Shown: positions 11,403-48,350, counted from the stretch's first letter. The stretch: 52,680 bases of DNA from Gemmatimonadales bacterium (GCA_035601435.1 DATNOH010000264.1:1-52680); one strand, 5' to 3'. The notes: generated by a model not told the origin, from the sequence alone. Translations and numbers: made by a program.

Positions 11403-11418
11403 ACAAGTATTTTACGCC

Positions 11419-17933: not shown

Positions 17934-19576
17934 TGTCTTTGAAACTCCGGTCCACCGAGCGCGAGGCCGACGGCGAGGGCACGCGCCTGAATGGGATCGC
18001 TGATCCCCGCCAGCTCACGTCCCAGAACCTGCTTTGTATTCTCGGACATTGCCCCACCCAGGATCTTCTCGTTGACTTCGCCGATCACTTGGTCGGCATC
18101 TCCGACTCCAACTATAGAATCGAGCACGACCGTCACGCCGGGCAGCTTGCCCGTTGCCAGAGCGACGGCAGCATTCATGCGATCGAGCAGCGCGCCGCTG
18201 TTCACCCACGCCGCTTCCCGCTCGGAGTATCCGTCGGGGGCGACATGGAGGTACAACGGCTCGCCGAGGCGCGCCACCACCTGTGCCAAACGTGGCGAAG
18301 TATCCGGCTCAGCGGAGACTGCGCGCGCCGCGCTGACCACGAACTCGAGCGGGGTCTTGACCTTGGCGCGCCCGTTGTCCGGCGCCCAGAAGTCGGGGCC
18401 GTGGAAAATGGCCCGCAGCACTTCGCGGACGTCGCCGCTCGAGCGTCTCCACGCCGCCACGGCCTCGTCCACGCAGCCGTCGGGTGGATCGTCGCGCACG
18501 AATCGTTGGCAGAGCTTCCAGCTGACGTGGTGCATGGTCGCCGGGAGGCCGGCCAGCATCTTCAGCAGGCGCACGCCCTCATCCATCCCATGGCCTGCTT
18601 GAAACCCGACACCCAGCACCTGCTTCTCCCTGCGGTCGTGCGCCCAGTCGTGGAACTCGAAGTCTCCGCCTTGTTGAGGACGCTCGATGCTCCAGCCCGT
18701 GAAAATGCGCGCTACGTCGATCACGTCCTGCTGGGTGTAGCCGCCGTCGACGCCCAGGGTGTGGAGCTCGAGCAACTCCCGGGCATAGTTCTCATTGATC
18801 CCTTTGGGCATCCCCTCGAGGGCTCGCCGGCGCATCGAGTCCTGGCGGGCAGAGTCGCGCATCGGGCCGAACAGACCGGGGCGGCGACCGAAGATGGGCC
18901 TGGCGCTGACGCGAAGGGCCGCGGGTGGGACGGAGCCCGGCGCTACACTTTCCCAGTTGTCGAGGTAGAAGAGCATCGCGGGACTCTTGGCGACGGCGAG
19001 CAGCAGGTCCGCGAACTTCCCCATCGCGCGGGGGCGAATCGTGTGCTCGATGTAATCGGGCGTGAGGAAGCGGTCGGCGCCCTTGGCCAAGTAGACGTTG
19101 AAGTGATTGGTCCAGAAGTCCACCATGATCTCATACAGCTGTCGCTCGGAGAGCGCGGCGCGGACCACCGCCAGCTCCGCGAATTCACCCGTGAGACGCT
19201 TGTCCCGTTGCGCGATCGGGCTCCCTCCATCCCTGTCGGCCATCGTGTCGGCGGCCAGTTTGCGCTCGCGCCGCTCGCGCTGCACCTCCGTGTACATCGC
19301 GGCGAGGTCGCGCCGGTCGTACTCGAGGATCTGGAACTGGCCCTCCCGCTCGGCGAGACGGTGGTCGTCGATCTCTTCGGGCGAGAGCTGGCGGTCAATC
19401 CAGCGCATCACCCCATCGGCAGCCACGCGTCGCACATCGCCGGGTCGAGGTCCGTACGCGAGGCGGTTCAGGGCGTGGAACGCCGAGTCCTGGGGAGTGA
19501 GGGCGGGTTGCTGCGCCGCGATACCGACCGGGAGGATGCCGAGCGTCAGGACCGACCAAACGATCCGCGTTTTCAT
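17930..19576 (-). CDS. DUF1800-family protein
   Basis: Start set at ATG 19576 (MKTRIVWSVLTLGILPVGIAAQ, a signal peptide); the track start at 19594 is a GTG. Motifs such as FWTNHFNV, LFYLDN and ENYARELLELHTLGVDGGYTQQDV are typical of DUF1800. Confidence 0.8.
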   Translation of the reverse strand: MKTRIVWSVLTLGILPVGIAAQQPALTPQDSAFHALNRLAYGPRPGDVRRVAADGVMRWIDRQLSPEEIDDHRLAEREGQFQILEYDRRDLAAMYTEVQRERRERKLAADTMADRDGGSPIAQRDKRLTGEFAELAVVRAALSERQLYEIMVDFWTNHFNVYLAKGADRFLTPDYIEHTIRPRAMGKFADLLLAVAKSPAMLFYLDNWESVAPGSVPPAALRVSARPIFGRRPGLFGPMRDSARQDSMRRRALEGMPKGINENYARELLELHTLGVDGGYTQQDVIDVARIFTGWSIERPQQGGDFEFHDWAHDRREKQVLGVGFQAGHGMDEGVRLLKMLAGLPATMHHVSWKLCQRFVRDDPPDGCVDEAVAAWRRSSGDVREVLRAIFHGPDFWAPDNGRAKVKTPLEFVVSAARAVSAEPDTSPRLAQVVARLGEPLYLHVAPDGYSEREAAWVNSGALLDRMNAAVALATGKLPGVTVVLDSIVGVGDADQVIGEVNEKILGGAMSENTKQVLGRELAGISDPIQARALAVGLALGGPEFQRQ

Positions 19577-19617
19577 GCGGTTATATTGACGCACCGTCCC
19601 CAGGAGAAGTTAAGGTC

Positions 19618-21510
19618 GTGACGGCGTCAACGCCGCGCTTCAACCCGCACGGTATCGGCCCCCGCCCCAGGAGCCCGCTTTCCGGCCCGGACGGCACCCC
19701 CCCGACCTGGTCGGAGCGGCTGCAGGCCCTCAGGTACGTGCCGCCGCTCCTCAAGCTCGTGTACCAGACCCACCGCCGCTACACCGCAGCGATCCTGGCG
19801 CTCCGCGCGCTGCGCTCCCTCGTCCCGCTCGCCGTCCTGTGGATCGGCAAGCTGATCATCGACGGCGTGATCGCCGCGATGCGGGCGCATGCGGGGGGGC
19901 AGCCGCTGGATTGGCGATACCTGGGCGGTCTCGTCCTGCTCGAGCTCGGGATCGGCGTCCTGGGAGAAATACTGGCGCGCCTGTCGGCGCTGCTCGAAAG
20001 CCTGCTGGGTGACCTGTTTTCGAACCGCATCAGCGTGCGTCTGATGCAGCACGCCGCCACGCTCGACATTGCGCAGTACGAGGACGCGGAGACCTATGAC
20101 CATCTCGAGCGTGCGCGGCGGCAGACGCTCGGTCGGATTGGCCTCATCACCTTGTTGCTCGCCACCGTCCAGGACCTGGTGACGCTGGTCTCGCTCGCCG
20201 GCGTGATCCTCGTCCAGTTGCCGTGGCTCCTGGTCCTGCTCGTCGTCGCCGTGCTGCCGTCGTTCCTGGGCGAGACCCACTACGCGGCGCTGGGATATTC
20301 GCTGCTGTTCCAATGGACTCCCGAGCGGCGCCTCCTCGATTATCTCCGCTACGCTGGCGCGTCCGACGAGATGGCGAAGGAAGTGAAGCTGTTCAACCTG
20401 TCGGACTTTCTCGTCGGGCGGTACGCCTCGCTGTCGCAAGAGTTCTACGACGCCAACAAGCGACTGGCGATCAAGCGTAACCTCGTGTCTACGCTCCTGG
20501 TGACGATCGGCACGCTCGGCTACTACGCAGCCTACGCCGTGGCCATCTACCTCACGGTGCTGGGGCGTTTCACGGTCGGCGCGCTGACCCTTCTGGCCGG
20601 ATCGTTCCGCCAGAGTCGCGATCTGATCCAGCGCGTTCTGCTGTCGTTGTCGCAGGTGTTCGAGCAGAGTCTATATCTCTCCGACCTGTTCACCTTCTTC
20701 GACGTGCAGCCCCGCGTCACGTCCACGCCGGGCGCGCGTCCGGTGCCGGTGCCGATCCGCCGCGGGTTCGAGTTCCAGGACGTTGGGTTCCGCTATCCGG
20801 GTTCGGACCGCTGGGCGGTACGGCACCTGACGTTCACGTTCCAGCCGGAGGAGCGGATCGCGCTGGTGGGAGAGAACGGGGCGGGGAAGACCACGCTCGT
20901 GAAGCTGCTGGCGCGCCTGTACGATCCGGACGAGGGCCGCATCCTGCTGGACGGGGTCGACTTGCGGGAGCACGACCTGAGCAGCCTGCGAAAGAACATC
21001 GGCGTGATTTTTCAGGACTTCGTGCGCTACGACTTCATCCTGAAGGAGAACATCGGGGTGAGCCAGATCGAGGCGCTTGAGGACGACGCGCGGGTGCGCG
21101 AGGCGGCGCGCCGCAGCCTGGCGGACTCGGTCGCCTCCCGTATGGCCAAGGGGTACGACCAGATGCTCGGCCGCCGGTTCGACGGCGGGGTGGAGTTGTC
21201 GGGCGGCGAATGGCAGAAAGTCGCGCTGGGGCGGGCCTACATGCGCGACGCCCAGGTGCTCATCCTCGACGAGCCCACCGCGTCGCTCGACGCCCGCGCC
21301 GAGTATGAAGTGTTTCTCCGGTTTGCGGAGCTCACCAGGGGCAGGATGGCCGTGCTGATCTCGCATCGCTTCTCGACGGTGCGCATGGCGGACCGGATCT
21401 TGGTGCTCCAGGGCGGCGAGCTGGTGGACCAGGGGACGCACGAGGACCTGGTGGCGCGGGGCGGACTGTACGCCGAGCTGTTCAGCCTGCAGGCGGCGGG
21501 ATATAGGTGA
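19618..21510 (+). CDS. ABC exporter, fused permease/ATPase (MsbA-like half transporter)
   Basis: 630 aa. Six predicted TM helices. Walker A GENGAGKTT, signature LSGGEWQKVALGRA, Walker B VLILDEPT. Confidence 0.9.
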   Translation: MTASTPRFNPHGIGPRPRSPLSGPDGTPPTWSERLQALRYVPPLLKLVYQTHRRYTAAILALRALRSLVPLAVLWIGKLIIDGVIAAMRAHAGGQPLDWRYLGGLVLLELGIGVLGEILARLSALLESLLGDLFSNRISVRLMQHAATLDIAQYEDAETYDHLERARRQTLGRIGLITLLLATVQDLVTLVSLAGVILVQLPWLLVLLVVAVLPSFLGETHYAALGYSLLFQWTPERRLLDYLRYAGASDEMAKEVKLFNLSDFLVGRYASLSQEFYDANKRLAIKRNLVSTLLVTIGTLGYYAAYAVAIYLTVLGRFTVGALTLLAGSFRQSRDLIQRVLLSLSQVFEQSLYLSDLFTFFDVQPRVTSTPGARPVPVPIRRGFEFQDVGFRYPGSDRWAVRHLTFTFQPEERIALVGENGAGKTTLVKLLARLYDPDEGRILLDGVDLREHDLSSLRKNIGVIFQDFVRYDFILKENIGVSQIEALEDDARVREAARRSLADSVASRMAKGYDQMLGRRFDGGVELSGGEWQKVALGRAYMRDAQVLILDEPTASLDARAEYEVFLRFAELTRGRMAVLISHRFSTVRMADRILVLQGGELVDQGTHEDLVARGGLYAELFSLQAAGYR

Positions 21511-22388
21511 CCCGCCTTGGTCGGCTCGCGGAGGAGATCGGATTCGTAGTCAAGGCGGCACGGCCGGGTTTTTGGCTCACGTCGATCTGGTTCTATCTCG
21601 TGCCCGCGGGCGGGCGAAATGTTTTCCATCAGCCGGAGTTCTGGCTCGGCCTCCTCTATGTGACGTTCCCGCTGGGTTTGCTGATCTACGGATGGAACGA
21701 CATCGTCGACTTCGAAGTGGATCGATTCAACCCGCGCAAAGGGACGTACCTGTTTGGTGCGCGGGGCACGCCGGAGCGTCTGGCGCGCCTGCCCTGGCGG
21801 ATCGCGGTCGTGCAAGTGCCGTTCGCGGTCCTGTTCACGCTGTTACTCGGACCCAAGGCGCTCGCGTGGTTCGCCGCGCTCATCATGGCCGCCGCGCTGT
21901 ACAACGCTCGGCCGTTCGCGTTCAAGGGCCGTCCCGGGTTGGACCTGCTGAACCAAGCGGGCTACCTGCTCGTGTTCGTCCTCGCGAGCTGGTTGAACCA
22001 TATCTCCCAGGTGCCTTGGTTCACCTTCGTGTTCGGTGCCCTGTTCGCGATGCACTCCCACCTGTTCGGGGAAATCATGGACTTGGAGCCCGATCGACGC
22101 GCCGGCCGTCGGTCCCTGGCCGGCGTGCTGGGAGCACGGCCGGCGAAGTGGCTGTTGGTCGCGTTGCTCGCCGTCGAAGCTGCGCTGATTTGGAAGTGGG
22201 CCCGCGATCCGTGGCTCGCCGCGTTTCTCGCCGCCAGCGCGGCCTGGTTCACGCTGGACGTGATGCTCCTGTGGCGCGATCGACCCTATTCGCCGGACGA
22301 GATGCGATTCTCGTTTCTCGCCTGGAACGGCGTGGCCCTGGCGTCCATGCCCTGGGTGTGGCACGCGGCCACGCTGGCGCCAGGGTAG
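21507..22388 (+). CDS. UbiA-family aromatic/polyprenyl prenyltransferase (substrate unknown)
   Basis: 293 aa, polytopic. First Asp-rich motif NDIVDFEVDRFN, second motif GEIMDLEPDRRAG. GTGA overlap with the ABC exporter stop. Confidence 0.85.
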   Translation: MTRLGRLAEEIGFVVKAARPGFWLTSIWFYLVPAGGRNVFHQPEFWLGLLYVTFPLGLLIYGWNDIVDFEVDRFNPRKGTYLFGARGTPERLARLPWRIAVVQVPFAVLFTLLLGPKALAWFAALIMAAALYNARPFAFKGRPGLDLLNQAGYLLVFVLASWLNHISQVPWFTFVFGALFAMHSHLFGEIMDLEPDRRAGRRSLAGVLGARPAKWLLVALLAVEAALIWKWARDPWLAAFLAASAAWFTLDVMLLWRDRPYSPDEMRFSFLAWNGVALASMPWVWHAATLAPG

Positions 22389-22796
22389 TCACGCTCCCGC
22401 ATCGAACGTGTAGCACCACGCTTCACCCTCGAGCACGGTTTCTCCTGTCTGGCGCGCCACCCTGATCCTCAGCTGACACACCGGCTTCGATTCATGCACG
22501 CTCACGACCTCTGCCTCGGCGGTGATCGTGTCGCCGATGTACACCGGCGCGGTGAACTTCCAGTTTTGACTCAGGAATACGGTGCCCGGCCCGGGGAGGT
22601 CCATCGCCACCAGGGCGTGCAACAGGCCGGTGGTGAGCCCCCCTTGCACGACCAACTTCCCGAATTTGGTCCGGGCGACGAACTCGGGATCGAAGTGGAG
22701 TGGGTTGTAATCGCCCGTGAGCTGCGCGAACGCGTTCACATGGTCGGGAGTGAGCGTGAGACTGCGGGATGCCCGCTCGCCCACGGCGACCTTCAT
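22389..22796 (-). CDS. MaoC-like hotdog-fold (R)-specific enoyl-CoA hydratase/dehydratase
   Basis: Start reset to ATG 22796 (MKVAVGERASRSLTLTPDHV...). GDYNPLHFD motif. ATGA overlap with the upstream hydrolase. The stop directly abuts the convergent UbiA stop. Confidence 0.85.
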   Translation of the reverse strand: MKVAVGERASRSLTLTPDHVNAFAQLTGDYNPLHFDPEFVARTKFGKLVVQGGLTTGLLHALVAMDLPGPGTVFLSQNWKFTAPVYIGDTITAEAEVVSVHESKPVCQLRIRVARQTGETVLEGEAWCYTFDAGA

Positions 22797-23836
22797 CGAG
22801 TCCGCTCCAGCGCCGCAACGAAGGGCGCGAAGTACTGCTTCCAGACAGCCGCCGCCGTGTGCGTGCCGTGGCCTCGCGTCCGCTCGCTCGTGGGAATCAG
22901 GATATAGCGGGCCCGCGGCACTGTGGGAATCAGCCGCTCCATGAGCCCGAGCTCCGGAGGGTTGATGAAGTCGTCGGCCGAGTTGATCGCGAGCACCGGC
23001 GCGGTGATGCGATCGAGCGCCGAGCTCGGATCGTAGTCGCGCGAGGCGTCCACCTGGTACACGAGATCGTTGGCGTCGGTCTCGGCGAAGCGCGTGTCGA
23101 GCCAGCGAGCGATGTAGGCGTCGGCCGCGTCGCGCGTTGGTGCGGATCGCTGGAGCTGCAGGGGACTCGACCCCGCCGTGAACAGCAGCTGGAGTGCCGC
23201 CCGGAGGCCGCGGGGCTGGCTCGTGTAGTCGCCGCTCTTCCAATCGGGATCGGTCTTGATGTCGTCGATGATCATCCTGCGCCACATGCGGTTCCGCCCC
23301 GCGATCTGCGTCGGGATGCACGCGAGCGGGACCACCCCATCCATGACCTCCGGATACCGCTCCGCCCAGAGCCAGCTGTGCATGCAGCCCATCGATGTGC
23401 CCATCACCAGGAGCAGGTGGTCGACGTGGAGCCCGTCGGTCACGAGCCGGTATTGGGCAGCCACCATGTCCTCATAGGCGTAGCGTGGGAATCGGGCCCG
23501 CAGCCCGTCGCTCGGCTTGGAGGAGCCACCGTGTCCGATGTTATCGGGCAGGATGAGGTAGTGCGTGGCGGTATCGAGCGGCTGGCCGGGGCCGTACAGC
23601 TCGCCTGCGAATACCGGCGATAGAAACTGCCGGCCCGATCCGCCGGTGCCGTGCAGCACCAGGACGGCGTTGCGCACCGTGCCGGCGGCGTTGCGACGGG
23701 GGTGGCCCAGCGTCCGGTAGTGCAGCCGCAACTCGGGCAACACCTCGCCGCTCGCGAATCGGAAATTCTTGATGACGAAGCTGCCGGTGTCCCCCTGTGC
23801 CGCCAGCGCGGCGAGGAGGAAGAGCGCCGGGCTCAT
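22793..23836 (-). CDS. Alpha/beta hydrolase, MetX (homoserine O-acetyltransferase)-like
   Basis: 347 aa. FRFASGEVLPELRLHYRTLG...NAVLVLHGTGGSG resembles a MetX N-terminus. Nucleophile elbow GTSMGCM. Short hydrophobic N-terminus. Confidence 0.85.
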   Translation of the reverse strand: MSPALFLLAALAAQGDTGSFVIKNFRFASGEVLPELRLHYRTLGHPRRNAAGTVRNAVLVLHGTGGSGRQFLSPVFAGELYGPGQPLDTATHYLILPDNIGHGGSSKPSDGLRARFPRYAYEDMVAAQYRLVTDGLHVDHLLLVMGTSMGCMHSWLWAERYPEVMDGVVPLACIPTQIAGRNRMWRRMIIDDIKTDPDWKSGDYTSQPRGLRAALQLLFTAGSSPLQLQRSAPTRDAADAYIARWLDTRFAETDANDLVYQVDASRDYDPSSALDRITAPVLAINSADDFINPPELGLMERLIPTVPRARYILIPTSERTRGHGTHTAAAVWKQYFAPFVAALERTR

Positions 23837-24360
23837 GCCAGATAGCGCTCCCGCAGGACCGCGAGGTGGTGGCGCTCGTGGCCGGCGATGATCCAGGCGA
23901 GCGCCCGCACGCTGATCGCGTTGTTGTTAGCCGTCCCCTGGCGCGCCAGGGCCTCCGCATCGAACCCTGAGAACAGGGCGATGGTCGCTCGCCGCACCGC
24001 GTCGAACTCGGCCGCGAGGTCCTTGAGAGGTCGCGCGTCGAACCGTCCTGCCGGCACCCATGCCTTCTCGTCGAACCCCGGGAGGGGGTTCGCGTCCGCC
24101 CGGCCGAACGTCAGCGCGCGGTAGCAGAAGACGCGCTCGCTGTCCGTCAGGTGGCCGAGCACTTCCTTGATGCTCCACTTGCCCGGCGCGTAGCGATGCA
24201 GCGCCTTCGCTTCCGACAAACCGGCGAGGAGCTGCTGCGTCTCGCGCCGCTGATCCTCGAGGACCTTCAGCAGGTTCCCCTTTGGGACCCTGGAGATGTA
24301 GGTCTCGTAGTACGCCAGGTATTCGGATGGCTCGGGGCGCGGGATCGCCGCGGCCGTCAT
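23833..24360 (-). CDS. DinB-family (four-helix-bundle, metal-dependent) protein
   Basis: Start reset to ATG 24360 (MTAAAIPRPEPSEYLAYYETYI...). WSIKEVLGHLTDSERVF and IIAGHERHHLAVL supply the DinB His triad. ATGA overlaps on both sides. Confidence 0.85.
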   Translation of the reverse strand: MTAAAIPRPEPSEYLAYYETYISRVPKGNLLKVLEDQRRETQQLLAGLSEAKALHRYAPGKWSIKEVLGHLTDSERVFCYRALTFGRADANPLPGFDEKAWVPAGRFDARPLKDLAAEFDAVRRATIALFSGFDAEALARQGTANNNAISVRALAWIIAGHERHHLAVLRERYLA

Positions 24361-24812
24361 GCGACCCTCCGCGGGCCCTTGGGCGTGCTCGCCTTTCCTT
24401 TGGCGGGTCCCGGGAACTTGGCGAGCCGCGCTTGGGCGTCCGGCATCTTCATGATGACCTGCTCCAGCTTCTCGAGGTAGCCCGGGTTGTTGAGTAGTGC
24501 CCGCACCTCGGTGAGGAACGGCCGGAGCCGCGCGTACACCATGATGTGCTCGCCGTTCGCGTCCGCGAACATCTGCTCGTCGATGGCGCCGTGTAGCACG
24601 AGCGTGGCCGCCATCCCCCAATAGGTGGTCACCATCCGGTAGAACGCGCTGCGCTTTCCGCGATACGCTTCGAGCACGTCCTCGGCCGTGCGGGGGCGGA
24701 ACTCCTCGCGAAACCAGGCCCGCGCCTTGCGCAGCAACGGCTCGCGGCGCATGTCGTACAGCTTGAGCAGCAGGTCGGCACTCTCGTATTTCGTGTTCAC
24801 GGGTGGCTCCAT
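24357..24812 (-). CDS. Hypothetical protein (helical, no recognised domain)
   Basis: Track ORF 24357..24827 starts at a TTG. I prefer ATG 24812 (MEPPVNTKYESADLLLKLYDMRREPLL...). Natural, non-Arg-rich composition. Sits inside the coupled operon. Confidence 0.65.
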   Translation of the reverse strand: MEPPVNTKYESADLLLKLYDMRREPLLRKARAWFREEFRPRTAEDVLEAYRGKRSAFYRMVTTYWGMAATLVLHGAIDEQMFADANGEHIMVYARLRPFLTEVRALLNNPGYLEKLEQVIMKMPDAQARLAKFPGPAKGKASTPKGPRRVA

Positions 24813-24831
24813 TCGGCAGGAGATCAAAAAG

Positions 24832-25194
24832 CTATGCGCGCGCCTGCACCGCGGCGACCCAGGCCCGCCAGGTCTCTTCCCCTGGGCCGACGGTCAGCTG
24901 CTGCTGGTGGCGGACCAGCGGCATCCGCAGGAGCAGGGGCTCCAGGGTGAGCTTGTCGAGCCAGCGTTCCTCGGAGAACAGGGCCGACTTGAGGCCGAGC
25001 TCGGTGAAGCGCTTCGCGTTGCGGTCGATCAGGCTCTGCACCCCGAACTGCTGCGCGAAACGCCGTAGCTCGCCGAGCGACGCGGCGCGCTCGTTCAGAT
25101 CCACGAAGTGCGTCTTGATACGACGCTCGGCGAAGAAGCGGAGCGCGGCCCGGGTGTCGGCGCTCTTGCGGACGCCGAAGATCTGGACTTCCAC
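24832..25194 (-). CDS. ArsC/Spx/YffB-family thioredoxin-fold protein lacking any cysteine
   Basis: 120 aa with a GTG start. VQIFGVRKSADTRAALRFFAERRI aligns with the IYGIKNCDTCRKA region of the ArsC/Spx family, but the Cys positions are Ser/Ala. I find no Cys in the whole protein. Its start overlaps the upstream stop by 1 nt (TAGTG). Confidence 0.8.
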   Translation of the reverse strand: MEVQIFGVRKSADTRAALRFFAERRIKTHFVDLNERAASLGELRRFAQQFGVQSLIDRNAKRFTELGLKSALFSEERWLDKLTLEPLLLRMPLVRHQQQLTVGPGEETWRAWVAAVQARA

Positions 25195-25976
25195 TAGCTG
25201 CCGCTCGAGAACCGCACCGCACCCAGGTCCACCAGGCCCTGCAGCGTGGCTTCGAGGTCCTCGACCCCGAGTCCCGCGACCCCGGCAATCTCCCCGAGGG
25301 TCCGCGTCCCGTCCGCGAGCTGCACGACGGCCGCCACATTTTCGTCACTGCGCGCGACCGCGACGCGTCCGTGCGCGGACCGCGCGACCAGCAGCTTCGT
25401 GCGCCGCTCCGGCGCCTGCGGCACGTCGGTCCACGGCTGGAGCAGTTTCGGCAGGATGCTCGGGAGATCGAAGGACAACTCCAAGAGCACCGTCCCTTCA
25501 ACGGTCGCCGGACGGAACCGCTCCCCGCTCCCCGCTCCCCCAGACGATGCGCCGTCCCGCCACACCCGCGGTCCCGCTTCGACGACCATCATCGCCTCTT
25601 CGTACCGCAGGAGATCGGCGAGATAGGGCACGGGCGCCTGGGCCGCCGCAACGTGAGCGGTCACGAGTCGCGCCACCGCTGCCGCCGTGTCGCGGCTGCC
25701 CAGAATGATCCCGGGGAGGAGCGCTTCGAAGGCGGGAGACTTGAGGATGCCCTCGGGCGCGCGGCCCGTGACGCGTGCGAGGGCGCGCGAGTACTTGAAG
25801 AAGTTGACGATGCGCTCGTGATAGAAATGGCGCGCCAAAAACCGCGCGTACCGCTCGACGCGGTCCGGATCGGCGAGCGCCCGGCGCCGCCACTCGAGCG
25901 AAGCGCGAAACGGTGCATCGGCGAGCGCGCGGATCACAGCGTCCTGCAGGGCGCGATCGTCCGGCAAACCGGTCAC
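25194..25976 (-). CDS. Hypothetical protein with a PqqD/RRE-like C-terminal segment; candidate partner of the DUF692 enzyme
   Basis: GTG start at 25976 in a GTGA overlap with the upstream stop (VTGLPDDRALQDAVIRAL...). The rest of track ORF 25194..26606 overlaps the upstream gene and is rejected. The N-terminal helical part (RYARFLARHFYHERIVNFF) is loosely reminiscent of DUF2063. The C-terminus VVQLADGTRTLGEIAGVAGLGVEDLEATLQGLVDLGAV resembles PqqD-type peptide-binding domains. Confidence 0.6.
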   Translation of the reverse strand: MTGLPDDRALQDAVIRALADAPFRASLEWRRRALADPDRVERYARFLARHFYHERIVNFFKYSRALARVTGRAPEGILKSPAFEALLPGIILGSRDTAAAVARLVTAHVAAAQAPVPYLADLLRYEEAMMVVEAGPRVWRDGASSGGAGSGERFRPATVEGTVLLELSFDLPSILPKLLQPWTDVPQAPERRTKLLVARSAHGRVAVARSDENVAAVVQLADGTRTLGEIAGVAGLGVEDLEATLQGLVDLGAVRFSSGS

Positions 25977-27175
25977 GGCGGGTTCGAGGGGGCGCAGGGG
26001 CGGAGCCGCACTACGGCCGTCCGCCCGTCGGAGACGACCTTCTGGCCGGAGACGTTGCGTCCCTCGGTGACCGCGCCGGGAAGGCGCATGTAGTCCAGCA
26101 GATCGCCGCATCCGCTCGCCTCGAGATCGTGTACCACGCGGTCTCGCTCCCAATCGATGTGCGACTCGATGCGATGGGTCGCTTGCGGCTCCCACGGCTT
26201 GAAAATCACCCCGACATCCTTGTTCGCGGCGCCGACCCAGACGAGCGAGAGACTGTCGAGCAGCCAGATTCGGATGTGATGACGAATCCGGACGTTCGGG
26301 CCCGCCAGCTCGTACGCGAGGTCCTGGGGCCGTCCCTCGAAGTACTGCGTGCTCACCGGAGCGGTGATCGCTGGCCTGCTCGCGATCGCGGCGGTCACCT
26401 CCCGCGTGACGCTGAGGAAAGACCGCTTCTGCGTCGGCAGCCAGCTGGCCGCCCGAAACGCGCTGTCGATCTCGGCGGCCGTACCCAGCAAGAGCACGTT
26501 GAACGGGTCGCCCGGCACGTCCCCTGTGCGGTTCTCGGAGCGGGGAACGAACTTCGGCAAGTCCGGCATCTCGGTCAGCTCGCGATGTGCCGTCAGGGGG
26601 TCGCACCGGTCCGGACCCGGGAGAACGAGGGGCTGGGTGAGTCGGATGCCGCCCGTTTCACCCGCGAGAATGCGCATCGGAGGCCCCCGGCGGATGAGCG
26701 AGAAGCCGCCGAGCACCGCTACAACCCCGGCGTCGAGGTCGGCCGCAGCCGCGACGCCTGCTGGCATGAGCTTCCTGCCGACGCCGCCGATGGACGTCCT
26801 GCCGCTGTAGACGAGCCCGGAATCGGTAACCGCGCCCGGCTTGGCGTACTCGAGCGTGTCGAGCAGACCGGAGATCGCGACCCAACGCGACGGGCGCACT
26901 TCCAGCGAGTCGAACGCCAGCCCCAGCCGGCCGTGCCGACCGAACCGCCCCCCGCCCTTGGAGATCACGATTCGGCCCTTCGCGCGGACGTAAGGCGGGA
27001 CCAGGACGCAGGAATCCTGCACCAACGCCCCCATCGTCTGCACCAGCACCCCTGTCCCCACGGTGTCCCGGCCGCTCGTGATGCGCTGCACAAAACGGAT
27101 CGGTATGCGCGTGCCCGCCGGCACCACGACGTCGGCCGAGAGCAGCGTGAGCAGCGTGATCGCGATCGCCCTCAC
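25973..27175 (-). CDS. Secreted protein with an LssY_C-like C-terminal domain
   Basis: GTG start at 27175 in a GTGA overlap with the DUF692 stop. Signal-like N-terminus VRAIAITLLTLLSA. C-terminal half DPFNVLLLGTAAEIDSAFRAASWLP...QYFEGRPQDLAYEL...RIRHHIRIW resembles the LssY C-terminal domain. Confidence 0.7.
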   Translation of the reverse strand: MRAIAITLLTLLSADVVVPAGTRIPIRFVQRITSGRDTVGTGVLVQTMGALVQDSCVLVPPYVRAKGRIVISKGGGRFGRHGRLGLAFDSLEVRPSRWVAISGLLDTLEYAKPGAVTDSGLVYSGRTSIGGVGRKLMPAGVAAAADLDAGVVAVLGGFSLIRRGPPMRILAGETGGIRLTQPLVLPGPDRCDPLTAHRELTEMPDLPKFVPRSENRTGDVPGDPFNVLLLGTAAEIDSAFRAASWLPTQKRSFLSVTREVTAAIASRPAITAPVSTQYFEGRPQDLAYELAGPNVRIRHHIRIWLLDSLSLVWVGAANKDVGVIFKPWEPQATHRIESHIDWERDRVVHDLEASGCGDLLDYMRLPGAVTEGRNVSGQKVVSDGRTAVVRLRPCAPSNPP

Positions 27176-27948
27176 AAGGCCTCCCGAATTCGCTCCACGC
27201 TGCGAAACAGCACCTCCGCCTTCAAGGAAGGCGAGAACGCGTCGAACGTGACGGCCTGGGCGCGGGGGCACTGGCTCACCGCATGGGCGGCGAAGGCAAG
27301 CATCTCGTCCGAGGGCTCGGCCGGCCCGATCCACGGACCCCCGAGGTCGTCGTCATGCTCGACGCCGGCGACGTGCAGCTCGACGACGTGCTCGAGCGGG
27401 AACTCCGCGAGCCAGCGCTCGGGCGCCATGTCGTGGTAGTGCGCCTCGAGCCACACGTGCGGCAGATCGAGCAGGAACCCGGCGCCCGTCGCCTCGAAGA
27501 AGCGACGCAGCCATACCGGCTCCGGCAGCTGACTCGCCTTGACGTCGAAGAACCCGGGGATGTTCTCCATCACGAGCGGCTGATCGAGGCGCGCCTGGAG
27601 CGCGCAGGCGTTACGGACGAAGCGCTCGAGGAACGCGTCCGTGTAGAGCGGCGGGAACACGTAGTTGAGACTGTACCCGCCGTCCTCGGTGTGGAGACAC
27701 TGAAAATGCTCGGCGACCCAGGGCGAATGATACAGGTCGGCGAGCGCGCGGGCACGCTGGATGGAGCGCTCGTCGAGCGGCTCGGAGAGCTGCCCCAAGT
27801 AGTCGTGCAGCAAGAGAGTGTAGCGCTCTTTGATCGCGGGCCACCACGGGTCCCTCGCCGCGGGAGGATCGGCCATGGCCAAGTGGTCGATCCCCTCCGC
27901 CCGGGCGAGTTCCGCTCCCAGGTGAGGGTTATAAAACGCCCCGACCAT
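27172..27948 (-). CDS. DUF692-family protein (multinuclear non-haem iron oxidase, MNIO; MbnB/TglH-like)
   Basis: 258 aa from ATG 27948 (the track start 27951 is a TTG). TIM-barrel-like family pattern: LLLHDYLGQLSEP, SPWVAEHFQCLHTEDG...LNYVFPPLYT, PLVMENIPGFF, GFLLDLPHVWLEAH, VVELHVAGVEHD, AVTFDAF. Confidence 0.85.
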   Translation of the reverse strand: MVGAFYNPHLGAELARAEGIDHLAMADPPAARDPWWPAIKERYTLLLHDYLGQLSEPLDERSIQRARALADLYHSPWVAEHFQCLHTEDGGYSLNYVFPPLYTDAFLERFVRNACALQARLDQPLVMENIPGFFDVKASQLPEPVWLRRFFEATGAGFLLDLPHVWLEAHYHDMAPERWLAEFPLEHVVELHVAGVEHDDDLGGPWIGPAEPSDEMLAFAAHAVSQCPRAQAVTFDAFSPSLKAEVLFRSVERIREAL

Positions 27949-29078
27949 CAAGTCCCCGTTGCGCGCCAGTCTAGTAACCCGCGTTGGGTGAGTTGGTCAC
28001 AAAAGACCTTGACCTGCGCCGCCACCATGGGGGACGCGTGAGCGTCCGTCCACAGGGCGGCGATCGTCTCCGCGCTCGTTGTGCCGTCCAGTCGCTCGAC
28101 GATAAACCGCTCACGCTCGCCCCAGGTGGCCGCCTCGCGCTTCAAATCATCGCTAGCGCCCGCTGGCGGAAACGCCGCCGCCACGATCTCGTCGATTTCC
28201 TGCAGTATGCTTGGGGCCAGGTGTTGGGTTCCTGCAAGGTTCTGGTCGACCTGCTCGCTGCTCCGCGCCCCCGCCAGGACGATACTCACGCCCGGGTGCG
28301 CGAGCACCCAAGCAAGCGCAAGACCCGACAGCGGCATGTCGAGCTCCCGGGCGATCGAGGCGAGCCGCTCGATCGCCGTCCGCCGGCGCTCGAACTCTCT
28401 GCCCTTGAACCAATAGATGTTGCGTCGGTGGTCGGCGGCGGTGAACTCAGGGAGCGCGGTGTACTTCCCGCTCAGCAGTCCCGCGGCGAGGGGCCGGTAT
28501 GCCAGGAACGCAATCCCACGCTCCCGGCACAGCGGCAGCTCCCGCTGCTCCACGTCCCGATCGAACAGGTTGTAGGCCCCCTGGTACGCGACCACGGGCG
28601 CGATCTCCAGCGCACGCGCGAGCTGGCGGTGGGTGGCATTACAGAGCCCCACCCCCAGGGCCTTTCCCTCCTCCTGCAGCGCGTGCAGTTGCTCGAGCCG
28701 CCCCTCCCAGCCTTCGAGCGCTTCGTGCAGCTGAATCAGATCCACATAGTCTGTCGCCAGCCGCCGCAGCGATGCCTCGAGGGCGCGGCGCGGATCGTCG
28801 CGCGGGCCGACCTTGGTGGCGATGGCGACGCGATCGCGGTCGGCCTGGAGGGCGCGACCCAGCAGGATTTCGGACGCGCCGTCGCCGTACGTAGGGGCGG
28901 TGTCGAAGAAGGTGATGCCGCGCTCGAGGGCGCGGCGGACGGTCGCGAGGCGGTCGGCTTCGGCCGAGGCAGCGCCCCACGCCGTGCCCCCCACCGCCCA
29001 GGCCCCGAACCCCAGGCGGGGTCCAGAGGTCAGGAAACGCAGCGGGGGCCCGACGTCTGTCCGGGCCCCCGGGCGCAT
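27948..29078 (-). CDS. Aldo/keto reductase fused to a ~75-aa PqqD/RRE-like C-terminal extension
   Basis: 376 aa. AKR core with the catalytic tetrad contexts FFDTAPTYGDG (D, Y), IATKVG (K) and IQLHEA (H). The core ends near ILQEIDEIV (about residue 300). The extra tail ERFIVERLDGTTSAETIAALWTDAHASPMVAAQVKVFCDQLTQRGLLD follows. GGGAG RBS 13 nt after the small ORF's stop. Confidence 0.85.
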   Translation of the reverse strand: MRPGARTDVGPPLRFLTSGPRLGFGAWAVGGTAWGAASAEADRLATVRRALERGITFFDTAPTYGDGASEILLGRALQADRDRVAIATKVGPRDDPRRALEASLRRLATDYVDLIQLHEALEGWEGRLEQLHALQEEGKALGVGLCNATHRQLARALEIAPVVAYQGAYNLFDRDVEQRELPLCRERGIAFLAYRPLAAGLLSGKYTALPEFTAADHRRNIYWFKGREFERRRTAIERLASIARELDMPLSGLALAWVLAHPGVSIVLAGARSSEQVDQNLAGTQHLAPSILQEIDEIVAAAFPPAGASDDLKREAATWGERERFIVERLDGTTSAETIAALWTDAHASPMVAAQVKVFCDQLTQRGLLDWRATGT

Positions 29079-29091
29079 CTGAACCGCTCCC

Positions 29092-29184
29092 TTAGGAGTG
29101 GCAGGTGGGCACCAGCTCCGCCGTCTCGACGATCTCGGGACGATGACAGCTGGGCACGAGCTCCTGCATCTCGACGATCTGCAT
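29092..29184 (-). CDS. Unannotated 30-aa ORF, candidate RiPP precursor peptide with two VP[ST]CH units
   Basis: My reverse-strand read is GAAGGAGGA TGT ATG CAG ATC GTC GAG ATG CAG GAG CTC GTG CCC AGC TGT CAT CGT CCC GAG ATC GTC GAG ACG GCG GAG CTG GTG CCC ACC TGC CAC TCC TAA. This translates to MQIVEMQELVPSCHRPEIVETAELVPTCHS. Strong RBS at 29188-29196. The stop lies 13 nt before the next gene. The ORF is below the size cut-off of the ORF track. Confidence 0.6.
   Translation of the reverse strand: MQIVEMQELVPSCHRPEIVETAELVPTCHS
29098..29181 (-). repeat. Tandem 39-nt coding repeat (period 45 nt) inside the small ORF
   Basis: Unit 1 (29143-29181) encodes QIVEMQELVPSCH. Unit 2 (29098-29136) encodes EIVETAELVPTCH. 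Conserved residues L, C and H use different synonymous codons in the two units (CTC/CTG, TGT/TGC, CAT/CAC). Confidence 0.7.
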
Positions 29185-29230
29185 ACATCCTCCTTCGCTA
29201 GGATACATCAGGAAGACGGCTATTGTGGGA

Positions 29231-29259
29231 ATCCTACGGGTTGCCGTCACACCCGTCAA
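29231..29259 (-). promoter_or_regulatory. Candidate sigma70-type promoter for the peptide/DUF692 operon
   Basis: On the minus strand: TTGACG (29254-29259), a 17-nt spacer, then TAGGAT (29231-29236), about 45 nt upstream of the peptide ATG. An ACGGGT/ACCCGT inverted repeat (29236-29241 and 29251-29256) lies in the spacer. Assigned by pattern only. Confidence 0.35.
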
Positions 29260-29280: not shown

Positions 29281-30219
29281 ATGATTCTGATTCATACGCT
29301 GTTGACAGAGAACGCACTCGCGGACGAATTCGTTTCCGCCTTCCATGAGAGGCGGCTGCCGGAGAAGTTCTTCTATTGGTTCCCCCTGTCGGTGCGCGCA
29401 TGGCTGGCCCTGTGCTCCGATGGCGCGTATCGCAACTTCGTGCGCTCGCGCTCGTTGATCGCGAGCTCCGGCGCGGAGCTGGCGCGCTTGTTTCCAGTCG
29501 CCCCGCTGGAAGTGGTGAGCCTCGGCGCGGGCCAGGGCGACAAGGACCTGCTGCTGCTCGACGCACTACGTGTGCGTGGCGCCCGGGTGTCGTACGTCCC
29601 CGTGGACACGAGCCAGGCCCTGCTGGAGATGGCGTGCGCAGGGGCGCTCGCTGCTGGCTTCCCAGCCCAGGGGATCAAGGCGGACTTCACGAACCCGGAC
29701 CACCTGAAGGCCCTCGCCGCCGAGCCCGAGACGCCGCCCCGGCTCGTGCTGCTCATCGGGAACACGCTTGGCGCCTTCGACCCCATCGCCGAAGCGCGCG
29801 AGCTGGCGCGGCTGCTGCGGCCGGGGGACGCGCTCCTGGTGGACGGCGAGCTGTACGCCGGCGATGCCACGGTAGCCGGCTACGACAATCCCCTGAACCG
29901 CCGCTTCGCTTGGGCGCCGCTCAACGCCGTGGGCATTCGCGACGCAGACGGCGAGTTGGTGTTCGAAGCGGCCGACGATCCGCGCCTTCCCGGCCTGCAT
30001 CTGATCCCCAAGCACTTCCGGGCGAGCCGGGACGTAGAGGCCCTCCTCGGGGGCGAGGCCCTGCGCCTGGCGCGCGGCGAGCGGCTCGCCATGAATCACT
30101 CGTATAAGTACGCCGCGGACACTTTCCTTCGGATTCTCTCCGAGGCCGGGCTCGCGGAGCGCTGGCAGGGACGGAGCGACGACCAGCGGTTTCTCATGAC
30201 TCTGGTCGCTCCTCGGTGA
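29281..30219 (+). CDS. EgtD-fold (Methyltransf_33, histidine N-alpha-methyltransferase-like) SAM-dependent methyltransferase, divergent member
   Basis: Start reset to ATG 29281 (MILIHTLLTENALADEF...). Blocks match EgtD as I recall it: LPEKFFYW, VVSLGAGQGDKDLLLLDAL, YVPVDTSQ, ADFTNPDHL, LLIGNTLGAFDP, LRPGDALLVDGEL, YDNPLNRRFAWAPLNAVG, MNHSYKY. The EYYPTRTE-type loop is not conserved. No RBS; the gene may be leaderless. Confidence 0.8.
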   Translation: MILIHTLLTENALADEFVSAFHERRLPEKFFYWFPLSVRAWLALCSDGAYRNFVRSRSLIASSGAELARLFPVAPLEVVSLGAGQGDKDLLLLDALRVRGARVSYVPVDTSQALLEMACAGALAAGFPAQGIKADFTNPDHLKALAAEPETPPRLVLLIGNTLGAFDPIAEARELARLLRPGDALLVDGELYAGDATVAGYDNPLNRRFAWAPLNAVGIRDADGELVFEAADDPRLPGLHLIPKHFRASRDVEALLGGEALRLARGERLAMNHSYKYAADTFLRILSEAGLAERWQGRSDDQRFLMTLVAPR

Positions 30220-30968
30220 CCCCGGCGCTCGAAGTACGCGGGCTCGGCTACCGATTGCCGGGAACGGGGAAAGGGGACTCGGGAAACGGACGCTTCCTCG
30301 TGCGGGACGTCTCTTTTTCCGTCGGCGCCGGAGAGACGTTGGTACTGCTGGGCCGGAGCGGCTCCGGGAAGACCACTACCCTCAAGCTCATCAACCGCCT
30401 GCTCGAGCCGACTTCCGGCGACGTGCGGGTGGCGGGGGAGCGCGCGGCCGACCTGCCGGTGACCCGTTTGCGGCGCCGGATCGGCTACGTGATTCAGGAG
30501 GTGGGCCTGTTCCCCCATTTCACGGTGGAGCGGAACGTGGGGCTCGTCCCACGGCTCGACGCGTGGTCGCCGGCGCGCATCGCCGCGCGGGTGCGCGAGC
30601 TGCTCGCGCTCGTGGGGCTCGACCCCGACACCTTCGTGCGGCGCTATCCGCACGAGTTGTCCGGGGGGCAGCGGCAGCGCGTGGGCGTGGCGCGCGCCCT
30701 GGCCGCCGACCCGCCGCTGCTCCTGCTCGATGAGCCGTTCGGCGCGCTCGATCCGATCACGCGGGTGGAGCTGCAGCGCGAGTTCGCGGCGCTCGAGGGG
30801 CGGATCGGCAAAGCCATGGTCTTCGTCACGCACGATGTGCGCGAGGGGCTGCTGCTGGGCACCCACATCGGGCTCATGCTGCAGGGTCGGCTCGCGTTTC
30901 TCGGCACGCCTGACGACTTCCGTCGGTCGGACAACCCGGAATGCCGGGCGTTCATGGCCGCGGCATGA
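30216..30968 (+). CDS. ABC transporter ATP-binding protein (osmoprotectant/betaine OpuB/OpuC type)
   Basis: 250 aa. Walker A GRSGSGKTT, signature LSGGQRQRVGVARAL, Walker B LLLLDEPF. GTGA overlap with the methyltransferase stop. Confidence 0.9.
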   Translation: MTPALEVRGLGYRLPGTGKGDSGNGRFLVRDVSFSVGAGETLVLLGRSGSGKTTTLKLINRLLEPTSGDVRVAGERAADLPVTRLRRRIGYVIQEVGLFPHFTVERNVGLVPRLDAWSPARIAARVRELLALVGLDPDTFVRRYPHELSGGQRQRVGVARALAADPPLLLLDEPFGALDPITRVELQREFAALEGRIGKAMVFVTHDVREGLLLGTHIGLMLQGRLAFLGTPDDFRRSDNPECRAFMAAA

Positions 30969-31603
30969 GTCTGTTGAGCTTCTACGCGCGTAACTCCCAG
31001 GAAGTCCTGGGGCTCGTGGGCCAGCACGTGTATCTGGTGGCGATCTCCACGGGCGCGGCCATCGTAATCGGCGTGCCGCTGGGTGTCTTGCTCACGCGGC
31101 GGCCGGGGTGGCGGGGCCCCGTGCTGGGTGTGGCCAATGTATTCCAGACGGTGCCGAGTCTCGCCCTGTTCGGGTTCCTCATTCCCCTGCCCTTCATCGG
31201 CGGCATCGGCGCGAGGACGGCTATCGTCGCGCTCGTCCTGTACGCCCTCCTGCCCATCGTTCGCAACACCTATGAGGGGATCGCCGGCGTGGACCCGGCG
31301 GTGCGCGAGGCGGGGCGCGGGATGGGCATGACCGACTGGCAGCTGCTGGCACAGGTCGAATTGCCGCTCGGCTTCGGCGTGATCCTGGCAGGGGTGCGGG
31401 TCGCGACGGTCGTAAGCGTAGGCACGGCGACGATCGCGGCGGCCATCGGCGCGGGCGGTTTGGGCGTGTACATCTTCCGGGGCGTGGCGGTGGTGGACGA
31501 TACGCTGATCCTCGCCGGGGCGCTGCCGGCCGCGCTGATGGCGCTCGCGGCGGACGGGCTGCTGGGAGTCGCGGAGCGGCGGTTCGCGTGGCGGGCGAAA
31601 TGA
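30965..31603 (+). CDS. ABC transporter permease (betaine/choline OpuBB/OpuCB type)
   Basis: Start set to ATG 30965 (ATGA overlap; MSLLSFYARNSQEVLGLVGQH...). EAA-like loop VREAGRGMGMTDWQLL. Five to six TM helices. Confidence 0.9.
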   Translation: MSLLSFYARNSQEVLGLVGQHVYLVAISTGAAIVIGVPLGVLLTRRPGWRGPVLGVANVFQTVPSLALFGFLIPLPFIGGIGARTAIVALVLYALLPIVRNTYEGIAGVDPAVREAGRGMGMTDWQLLAQVELPLGFGVILAGVRVATVVSVGTATIAAAIGAGGLGVYIFRGVAVVDDTLILAGALPAALMALAADGLLGVAERRFAWRAK

Positions 31604-32478
31604 GTCCTCACCCCCTGTCCCGCTGCCTCGGTCTGCTCGCGCTGCTACTCACCGGATGCGCTCAGCGCGACCGGATCGTGGTGGGCTCCAAGAACTTCAC
31701 CGAGTCCGATCTGCTGGGGGAGATCGTGGCGCAGCAAATCGAGCGGCGCACGGCGCTCCCGGTGGAGCGACGCTTCCACCTGGGCGGCACGTTCGTGTGC
31801 CACCAGGCCATCACGTCGGGCCAAATCGATCTCTACGTCGAGTACACGGGGACCGCCTACACCGCCGTATTGAAGCGCGCGCCCGTCGCCGATCGCGACA
31901 GCGTCTATCGGACGGTCGCGCGCGACTATGCGCAGCGGTTCGGGCTCGCGTGGGGCGAGCCGTTCGGCTTCAACAACACGTTCGCCATCACCGTGCGGCG
32001 GCGCGACGCGACGCGCGACGGGCTGAAGCACATCTCCGACCTGGCGCGCGTCGCCCCGCGCTGGAAGGCCGGATTCGGTTACGAGTTCCTGGAGCGCGCC
32101 GACGGGTTCCGCGGACTCGCGAGTGTGTACGGACTGCGGTTCGCCGCTCCACCCACCGCGATGGACCTGGGGCTGACGTATCGGGCCCTGGCGGAGGGGA
32201 AGGTGGACGTGATCGCCGGTAACTCGACGGACGGCCAGATCCAGGCCCTGGACCTCCTGGTCCTGGAAGACGACCGGCACTACTTCCCGCCGTATGAAGC
32301 TGCCCCGGTCATCCGCCAGGCAGCGCTCACACGACACCCCGAGATCGCCGCGGCCCTGGCTCAGCTCGCGGGCAAGATTTCGGACGCCGAGATGCGACGG
32401 CTCAACGCCCTCGCGGACGTCGAGCACCGGGACATCGCGACCATCGCGCGCGACTGGCTGCGCGCCACCCTGCCGTGA
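31600..32478 (+). CDS. Betaine-type ABC substrate-binding lipoprotein (OpuBC/OpuCC-like)
   Basis: Start set to ATG 31600 (ATGA overlap). Lipobox LLTGC. IVVGSKNFTESDLLGEIVAQ, IDLYVEYTGTAY and LEDDRHYFPPYEAAPV are typical of glycine-betaine-family binding proteins. Confidence 0.9.
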   Translation: MSPHPLSRCLGLLALLLTGCAQRDRIVVGSKNFTESDLLGEIVAQQIERRTALPVERRFHLGGTFVCHQAITSGQIDLYVEYTGTAYTAVLKRAPVADRDSVYRTVARDYAQRFGLAWGEPFGFNNTFAITVRRRDATRDGLKHISDLARVAPRWKAGFGYEFLERADGFRGLASVYGLRFAAPPTAMDLGLTYRALAEGKVDVIAGNSTDGQIQALDLLVLEDDRHYFPPYEAAPVIRQAALTRHPEIAAALAQLAGKISDAEMRRLNALADVEHRDIATIARDWLRATLP

Positions 32479-39065: not shown

Positions 39066-39194
39066 ACGCAGAGAAGGTTTGCTGCTCCCGTCCGCTGGTC
39101 TCCCCTGTGCGTCTGTGCGTCTAGCTCATGCCTAGCCTGCTCGCTGTTTCGTGCTCCATATTCTCCTCACCCCCAGCAGGAGTCGCATGCGCCC

Positions 39195-45797: not shown

Positions 45798-45874
45798 GCG
45801 ACGCTCTCCGATTCTCGACTTACGAAGAATGCTGCGTGTGGCAACGTCCCGCCAGCGCCAGCCTTAGCCGCATG

Positions 45875-48283: not shown

Positions 48284-48350
48284 ACGGACCGCCCCGAGGG
48301 GGACTCGGGAAATGTGGCGTGGGTCCGTCGGTTCAGTGAGGGGTTGGCGG

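Follow-up and report, generated by a model that had tools for sequence, protein, structure and literature searches.

A putative biosynthetic cluster for an undescribed family of MNIO-modified Cys-His repeat peptides in Gemmatimonadales

[quoted passage not shown] Here we describe a putative MNIO cluster in a DNA stretch of 52,680 nucleotides from a Gemmatimonadales bacterium (GCA_035601435.1 DATNOH010000264.1:1-52680; the whole stretch is termed the window). In this cluster, a small open reading frame (ORF) encoding a peptide with two copies of a Cys-His motif precedes the genes of an aldo-keto reductase (AKR) and an MNIO. The G+C content of the window is ~68%, and its closest protein relatives were from metagenome-assembled genomes (MAGs) of Gemmatimonadales.

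Three groups of described MNIO systems are closest to the window system. In the pearlin pathway of Pseudomonas syringae (TglHI), whose product is 3-thiaglutamate, TglH acts on a single C-terminal Cys that has been added to a scaffold peptide. In the aminopyruvatide pathway (ApyHI), ApyH converts a C-terminal Asp. In the captophorins, bufferins and oxazolins (FonBC, BufBC, HvfBC), every copy of a repeated Cys motif is converted to a metal-binding heterocycle, a 5-thiooxazole with a mass change of -4 Da per site, which yields copper-binding peptides (PMC13097082; PMC12452194). The FonBC motif does not tolerate Pro (PMC13097082). These systems have DUF2063 (PME1) partner proteins, mostly precursors with a Sec signal or a DUF2282 domain, and five-residue repeats of the EGKCG type. 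A second type of MNIO partner (PME type 2), which lacks DUF2063, has also been described (PMC12452194).

Like the Tgl system, the window system pairs a type 2 partner with a Cys-containing substrate whose precursor is cytoplasmic and has no signal peptide, and TglHI provided the top PDB match for both the window MNIO (TglH) and the model of its partner (TglI). However, the identity to TglH was low, and the Cys of the window peptide is internal, genetically encoded, always followed by His and repeated two to four times in the family. The Tgl cluster differs from the window family in lacking both an EgtD-like methyltransferase and an AKR fused to a domain like the recognition element (RRE) of peptides that are ribosomally synthesised and modified after translation (RiPPs). 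No PEARL or LanB-like gene was found in the conserved neighbourhood of the compared loci, and a pearlin-type assignment was rejected on the internal encoded Cys and the missing PEARL gene.

ApyH and ApyI were the best NCBIfam matches of the window MNIO and partner, and both systems use a type 2 partner, but the P450 and B12-radical S-adenosylmethionine (SAM) enzymes of the ApyHI cluster are absent from the window cluster. Against the curated equivalog models, the window MNIO scored 95.2 bits for ApyH (cut-off 400), 86.1 for BufB (310), 49 for HvfB (360) and 16.9 for ChrH (600), and the partner scored 23.8 bits for ApyI (200). An ApyHI-type system was rejected on these scores. Also rejected were a bufferin or captophorin (BufB and HvfB below cut-off; no DUF2063, DUF2282 or EGKCG repeat) and a chryseobasin or methanobactin (the ChrH score; no MbnB or MbnC among the profile matches listed for the window proteins). 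The initial annotation of the window, made by a model from the sequence, could match the architecture to no known MNIO RiPP cluster, and the MNIO fell far below every curated cut-off. The best functional analogy may be with FonBC, BufBC and HvfBC, from which the window system differs in its unit of ~12 residues with Pro-Thr-Cys-His, the lack of a signal peptide, and the added methyltransferase and AKR.

We consider it quite probable that the window carries the biosynthetic cluster of an undescribed family of MNIO-modified ribosomal peptides, in which the MNIO and its partner would act on the small peptide of the window, with the gene core given here. The conserved core of the cluster, as supported by the comparison of loci, is a leaderless precursor, an MNIO, a TglI/ApyI-type partner and an EgtD-like methyltransferase, joined in Gemmatimonadota by an AKR with an RRE-like tail. 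These genes and a promoter candidate are positioned in the window as follows.

29092-29184, minus strand: precursor peptide, with a 13-nt gap before the AKR gene
27948-29078, minus strand: AKR with a C-terminal RRE/PqqD-like domain, TGATG overlap with the MNIO gene
27172-27951, minus strand: MNIO (DUF692) oxidase, start codon TTG at 27951 or ATG at 27948, GTGA overlap with the LssY_C gene
25194-25976, minus strand: MNIO partner of 260 residues, TglI/ApyI-like, TAGTG overlap with the ArsC-like gene
29281-30219, plus strand: EgtD-like (Methyltransf_33) SAM methyltransferase, PF10017 86.7 bits, divergent from the peptide gene
29231-29259, minus strand: sigma-70-like promoter candidate TTGACG-17-TAGGAT, a consensus match in the 96-bp divergent intergenic region

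The promoter candidate lies just upstream of the peptide ORF and was the sole promoter-like match between 22000 and 29600, where 0.4 were expected.

We compared ~160 related loci from two phyla, comprising 80 loci of species-representative genomes (a relative was found in 132 species-level genomes), 80 metagenome loci and single contigs. Homologues passing the E-value cut-offs numbered 852 for the MNIO and 640 for the partner. Gene presence was scored per locus by tblastn with the window proteins at a coverage of at least 50%, because gene calling in the neighbourhoods (GC3 filter) was crude, and the denominators are the sufficiently covered loci. The core genes other than the precursor and MNIO genes were distributed as follows.

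Gemmatimonadales: methyltransferase 54/54, partner 53/53, AKR 58/60
Actinomycetota-binned MAGs (three loci, which may be binning errors): methyltransferase 2/2, partner 3/3, AKR 3/3
Gemmatimonadaceae: methyltransferase 3/3, partner 4/4, AKR 3/4
Acidobacteriota genomes: methyltransferase 4/4, partner 3/3, AKR 0/5
Acidobacteriota-type metagenome loci: methyltransferase 42/43, partner 57/58, AKR 0

Across the genome loci, the partner and the methyltransferase were each present in 63/63. This co-occurrence over ~160 loci supports the MNIO-centred RiPP cluster of the initial annotation. Its further proposal of a new RiPP-type system survives in part: the precursor family, the universal EgtD-like methyltransferase and the AKR-RRE fusion all appear to be undescribed, but the architecture is that of the classical precursor-MNIO-partner cassette, and the system is therefore not categorically new.

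The precursor MQIVEMQELVPSCHRPEIVETAELVPTCHS has 30 residues and consists of two tandem IVExxELVP[S/T]CH units without a separate leader. Its ATG is at 29184, downstream of the ribosome-binding site GAAGGAGG. Its association with the MNIO is conserved: in 129 loci the ORF sits directly upstream of the gene of the AKR or the MNIO, and 70 distinct peptides with 185 repeat units were obtained. The consensus of the unit is [I/L]-V-E-T-x-E-[V/L]-[A/V]-P-[T/S]-C-H (~12 residues), and linkers of one to four residues separate the units. Both Cys and His were present in 185/185 units, Pro in 181, and the two Glu in 179 and 176; the residue preceding Cys was Thr or Ser in 177. The copy number differed by clade, ranging from two to four. 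Gemmatimonadales peptides, including that of the window, have two units and end in CH followed by S, A, T or I; those of the Actinomycetota-binned MAGs have three and end in CHV; those of the Acidobacteriota type have three and end exactly in PTCH; and those of Gemmatimonadaceae have four and end in CHR or CHL.

The two-unit gene was represented by 51 distinct nucleotide versions, which varied at 12, 8 and 25 sites at codon positions 1, 2 and 3, respectively, and the motif residues were invariant. Such a pattern marks a gene that is translated and kept by purifying selection, and the predicted peptide ORF is far beyond chance. By direct comparison, 29 of 36 nt were identical between the two units of the window gene; Tandem Repeats Finder did not report these two units of 45-nt period. 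The motif occurs nowhere else in the six frames of the window. No Pfam or NCBIfam model matched any variant of the precursor, which appears to be undescribed, and the peptide lacks a signal peptide, a DUF2282 domain and EGKCG repeats.

The window MNIO matched PF05114 (MbnB_TglH_ChrH) with 94.7 bits (gathering score 25), and the closest solved structure was TglH (8hci; E-value 1.6e-9 over ~170 residues). Residues H49, H82, E129, D162 and H193, which we take to be the iron ligands on the assignments from published structures, align with matching residues of TglH and 3bww. Together with H165, D200, D202 and D237, they were invariant in 81 family members as well as in the clades with 57% and 48% identity, and the predicted enzyme looks catalytically competent. 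In clades with 31–37% identity most of these positions were substituted, and the active family is therefore well delimited. In a library of 1.84 billion representative proteins, only 33 reached an E-value of 1e-30, mostly fragments of the same clade, and full-length neighbours were found at 75%, 57% and 48% identity before a drop to 34–37%. The family is abundant in soil metagenomes.

The MNIO-like proteins with 31–37% identity (P0136, P0137, P0149, P0158 and P0160) have substitutions such as H82 to R, S or P and H193 to Q or R, and they may be catalytically dead paralogues. The P0137 locus (L134 1157-3740) retains a divergent EgtD-like methyltransferase gene and the partner gene, and has no recognisable precursor ORF. 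Its partner gene is followed, at ~3805-4084, by an ORF that encodes a Tat-like signal (MNRRGFLALGAAA...) together with an AKR-like N-terminus and within which the contig ends; this is a second, independent adjacency of MNIO and AKR.

A Pfam search found no domain in the 260-residue partner, including no DUF2063, and a sequence search against the PDB gave generic winged-helix matches only. An AlphaFold2 model built from 50 homologues (pLDDT 82, pTM 0.78) predicted a helical N-domain and a C-terminal winged helix of the RRE type. Only three PDB structures matched this model in Foldseek at an E-value of 0.001 or better: TglI 8hi7_A (E-value 1.3e-5, TM 0.58), TglI 8hci_A, and NGO1945 (3dee, E-value 3.4e-4), the archetypal DUF2063 partner. 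NCBIfam ApyI was matched by 8/11 diverse members of the partner family (best E-value 4.6e-9), and HvfC weakly by one. In three related lineages (P0128, P0158 and P0160), the MNIO carries the partner as a C-terminal fusion, and in every locus without LssY_C the MNIO gene is immediately followed by that of the partner. Fold, ApyI matches, fusions and adjacency thus identify the protein as an ordinary type 2 MNIO partner and not an extra module. The initial annotation had stated that none of the accompanying genes belong to classical MNIO cassettes, which is incorrect for this one.

The closest outgroup, P0128 (48% identical; L082 163-2024), is a natural MNIO-partner fusion on a contig of 4.1 kb. 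A small ORF before it, ending in MQNAKLEVETVETEQIRPQ, has a VET-type acidic repeat and contains no Cys or His; as this ORF is Cys-free and the contig short, it is uninformative about the Cys-His motif.

The putative methyltransferase, which was not in the initial list of genes, is a core component and the most conserved accessory neighbour of the MNIO in the two phyla. It aligned with EgtD structures (E-value ~1e-11) and belongs to the same Pfam family as EgtD and EasF (PF10017), but is linked to a RiPP cassette and not to egtB, egtC or egtE. It is not a true EgtD: its score for the EgtD equivalog TIGR03438 was 67.5 (cut-off 290.9), and in the alignment to 4uy6, N166 and E282 of EgtD, which we take to be histidine-binding residues, are replaced by Ala and Asn. 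In Gemmatimonadales, the methyltransferase gene is translationally coupled to four transport genes (30216-33338), which include those of an ATP-binding cassette (ABC) importer.

30216-30968, plus strand: ProV-like ATPase, overlapping the methyltransferase gene
30941-31603, plus strand: permease of the divergent operon
31588-32478, plus strand: OpuBC/OpuCC/EgtUC-like lipoprotein binding protein of the divergent operon
32475-33338, plus strand: EamA transporter of the divergent operon

The ABC genes were present in 52/52 Gemmatimonadales loci, and all four transport genes were missing from the Acidobacteriota-type loci. A specifically EgtU-like binding protein was rejected: the protein is about equally close to OpuBC, OpuCC and EgtUC (E-values 1e-50 to 1e-60), and the comparison therefore does not discriminate between them. 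A minimal version of four genes was found on one complete Acidobacteriota chromosome (L081), flanked by unrelated genes; there, the peptide, MNIO and partner genes share a strand and the methyltransferase gene lies on the opposite one.

The AKR matched Pfam Aldo_ket_red with 208.8 bits, and its catalytic tetrad (D59/Y64/K89/H118) was kept in 62–63 of 63 homologues. The initial annotation had also described its tail as RRE-like. The tail of the window protein (approximately residues 320–376) scored 17.3 bits for PqqD, under the cut-off of 23.4, and the tails of 11/17 diverse homologues matched Pfam PqqD (best E-value 4e-5), in line with that description. The tail consensus is W-G-x-R-E-R-F-I-V-E-R-L-D-G ... 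A-A-Q-V-K-V-F-x-D-Q-L; a profile of the tail against the PDB matched the barrel end only and no PqqD structure. The association of the AKR with DUF692 is conserved across Gemmatimonadota (64/67 Gemmatimonadota-type loci) but does not extend to any Acidobacteriota-type locus, and on this distribution the putative reductase is a lineage-specific addition to the core. The clades with and without the AKR offer a natural contrast for dissecting its role.

In the main text and supplements of the MNIO landscape study, which apparently drew on NCBI assembled genomes (the supplement lists GCF assemblies), we found no Gemmatimonadota, AKR, LssY, DinB or ArsC. Full-text searches for literature linking MNIO with Gemmatimonadota or with EgtD/ergothioneine, or EgtD-like proteins with RiPPs, returned nothing relevant, and those aimed at an RRE joined to an AKR yielded no such fusion. 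The AKR-RRE fusion and the EgtD-family methyltransferase are tailoring enzymes without RiPP precedent in the searched literature.

For the proposed undescribed peptide family, the following pathway may be envisaged. Each unit would bring its own recognition sequence, the acidic and beta-strand-like VETxE[V/L] segment, for the RRE-type domains of both the partner and the AKR, and the MNIO-partner complex would oxidise each invariant Cys with O2. Cys is likely to be the site of modification. For the product, we tentatively favour a heterocycle or thioamide that retains sulfur, such as a 5-thiooxazole or an oxazolone-thioamide, although other outcomes together carry more weight. The modified Cys and the invariant neighbouring His could then form N/S/imidazole metal-binding sites. 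The AKR might use NAD(P)H to reduce a carbonyl that has arisen on the oxidised peptide, the methyltransferase might N-methylate the product, and the neighbouring EamA, major facilitator superfamily (MFS) and ABC transporters might move it. Given the invariant pair of Cys and His, the product may have a new structure that binds metal or is cross-linked. Each repeat of the tiny leaderless substrate holds both the proposed recognition sequence and the core, which is convenient for enzymology, and the family may inform the metal or redox physiology of Gemmatimonadota and Acidobacteriota, which are dominant and poorly cultured soil phyla.

Several points weigh against this pathway. The type of reaction is not readable from sequence, the chemistry of the cluster is inferred, and the nearest characterised MNIO enzymes, TglH and ApyH, perform chemistry other than thiooxazole formation. 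The Pro two residues before Cys is of a kind that FonBC does not tolerate, and the chemistry may therefore differ. The AKR is missing from the Acidobacteriota clade and is therefore not essential to the core reaction. The binding protein of the importer is of the quaternary-amine type, which fits a small betaine better than a peptide of 30 residues; no dedicated protease was identified in the cluster; and every related locus derives from MAGs or metagenomes.

In one alternative, the peptide is a sacrificial scaffold. The MNIO would join or transfer the Cys sulfur to His, and the resulting unit would be excised, N-methylated, exported (EamA/MFS) and re-imported through the OpuBC/EgtU-type ABC transporter as a thio-imidazole betaine. 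The adjacent and invariant Cys and His of all 185 units are consistent with such a product, as is the membership of the sole universally linked tailoring gene in the EgtD/EasF family, whose enzymes methylate aromatic amino acids at the alpha-amino group. The coupling of this gene to the importer, whose binding protein is as near EgtUC as OpuCC, points the same way; a multi-copy precursor would suit the stoichiometric release of a small product, and a thiol-transferase-like DinB protein and a hydrolase recur nearby. However, the methyltransferase is far under the EgtD cut-off and lacks both N166 and E282, the cluster has no conserved C-S lyase or protease, the importer is missing from the Acidobacteriota clade, and a link between MNIO and EgtD or ergothioneine was not found in the literature. 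We know of no MNIO that forms Cys-His bonds. On balance we regard a sacrificial scaffold as unlikely. A more specific proposal is that the MNIO bonds Cys sulfur to His imidazole, or fuses the pair in another way, on such a template, and that soil Gemmatimonadota and Acidobacteriota thereby make a small molecule resembling ergothioneine or ovothiol from a ribosomal peptide; this we regard as improbable.

Modification of a residue other than Cys has a similarly small probability. Here the MNIO would hydroxylate His, Thr/Ser or Pro, or cleave the backbone, as in ApyH, PbsC or std-type systems, and Cys would be a metal ligand or form a disulfide. The enzyme and its partner have their best family matches in ApyH and ApyI, a pair whose target is not Cys, and MNIO enzymes have recently been reported to hydroxylate Phe or homocitrulline. 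The Cys-free VETVETE-type ORF upstream of the P0128 relative would also fit. The ApyH and ApyI scores are far under the cut-offs, however, the nearest solved structure, TglH, acts on Cys, and Cys is the sole residue that the window peptide has in common with most MNIO substrates (PMC12452194).

The initial annotation had described ten minus-strand genes as one translationally coupled unit. All ten ORFs and their junctions are present in the sequence as claimed, and profile searches with each protein bore out the domain assignments. Six of the ten are additional to the core genes listed above.

25973-27175, minus strand: LssY_C-domain protein, PF14067 131 bits, GTGA overlap with the gene of the 260-residue partner
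24832-25194, minus strand: Cys-less protein of the ArsC/Spx fold, ArsC PF03960 37 bits, 19-nt gap before the DUF4760 gene
24357-24812, minus strand: DUF4760 protein (previously "hypothetical"), PF15956 74 bits, ATGA overlap with the DinB_2 gene
23833-24360, minus strand: DinB_2/thiol-transferase-like protein, PF12867 96 bits, MST 45 bits, ATGA overlap with the hydrolase gene
22793-23836, minus strand: MetX-like alpha/beta hydrolase of the PRK06489 family, NF005071 521 bits, ATGA overlap with the MaoC gene
22389-22796, minus strand: MaoC hot-dog protein, PF01575 85.6 bits

If all ten genes formed one obligatory coupled pathway, with each distal gene providing a maturation step, the tight overlaps in the window would be explained, and the same gene order from the peptide through the hydrolase was indeed found in L001 and ~15 further close loci. 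However, each distal gene was present in just 24–60% of the Gemmatimonadales loci: LssY_C in 23/53, ArsC-like in 25/42, DUF4760 in 18/42, DinB in 19/42, the alpha/beta hydrolase in 16/39 and MaoC in 9/38. By tblastn over the compared loci, none of the six was found in any other clade. Zero to six accessory genes separate the partner gene from a convergent MsbA-like ABC exporter, and their combinations vary even at an MNIO identity of at least 83%, with some loci having none. With a minimal version of four genes in Acidobacteriota, the ten-gene unit could not be maintained, and we give an all-ten pathway very little credence. On the predicted gene content, LssY_C, ArsC-like, DUF4760, DinB, hydrolase and MaoC make up an accessory region of variable composition and are not obligatory parts of the pathway.

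The accessory genes differ in how closely they follow the cluster. MaoC is missing from L001, where the gene order otherwise matches that of the window, and is probably outside the system. The hydrolase gene lies between the AKR and MNIO genes in another sub-clade (L050-L071) and the ArsC-like gene occurs at varying positions; this recurrence, which would also favour an all-ten pathway, hints at a looser functional tie of these two. In 30/30 homologues of the ArsC-like protein, Ser (Asn in two) occupies the position of the canonical ArsC/Spx/YffB catalytic Cys, and the window protein contains no Cys at all and therefore cannot act as a thiol reductase. The gene of the LssY_C protein, which has an N-terminal hydrophobic segment, is inserted after that of the MNIO and before that of its partner. 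No PDB relative of it was found, an AlphaFold2 model made without an alignment had a pLDDT of 29, and a literature search on LssY returned nothing relevant. At the same site, other Gemmatimonadota sub-clades carry the gene of an unrelated protein of 343–371 residues (L067 10788-11819; L057 ~10618-11730), which has an N-terminal hydrophobic segment and a repetitive, beta-strand-like sequence. This position thus looks like a hotspot for genes of putative secreted proteins.

That the small ORF arose by chance or encodes a leader or a regulator, while the MNIO acts on a different substrate, is highly improbable: the distant P0137 clade, with its methyltransferase, MNIO-like protein and partner but no recognisable precursor ORF, would suit this idea, yet its proteins lack the metal-ligand residues and are therefore a poor guide, and the ORF is kept in two phyla with a variable repeat number and an invariant motif, shows coding-type variation and a strong ribosome-binding site, and is always directly upstream of the enzyme genes.

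Beyond the variable region, the MsbA/HlyB-like ABC exporter gene (19618-21510, plus strand, convergent) was present in 18/32 covered Gemmatimonadales loci, always just past that region, and in L026 with the partner gene immediately before it. Its product may export the product of the cluster, or its position may simply reflect conserved synteny. A convergent UbiA-type prenyltransferase gene (21507-22388, plus strand) ends one base from the MaoC stop codon (22389, minus strand), which leaves no intergenic room for terminators; a UbiA-type neighbour at this position was seen in only one other locus (L015).

DUF1800/DUF1501, the Rieske-FMN reductase, MFS, a beta-lactamase-like gene and a short-chain dehydrogenase/reductase were rejected as members of the cluster, since they look like lineage synteny or are specific to sub-clades. 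A reading as a defence system was dropped, as the PADLOC models gave no matches. The DUF1800/DUF1501 pair (16680-19609, minus strand) recurs near the cluster in many Gemmatimonadales loci and probably reflects lineage synteny. Other genes of the window are listed below.

1079-3142, plus strand: P-type (E1-E2) ATPase, at the start of the window
35563-36690, minus strand: Rieske [2Fe-2S]-FMN reductase fusion
39066-41291, plus strand: EF-G homologue
43362-48358, minus strand: two adjacent paralogues of ~830 residues with C-terminal M1-peptidase domains
48351-49457, minus strand: lysine-2,3-aminomutase-like radical SAM protein

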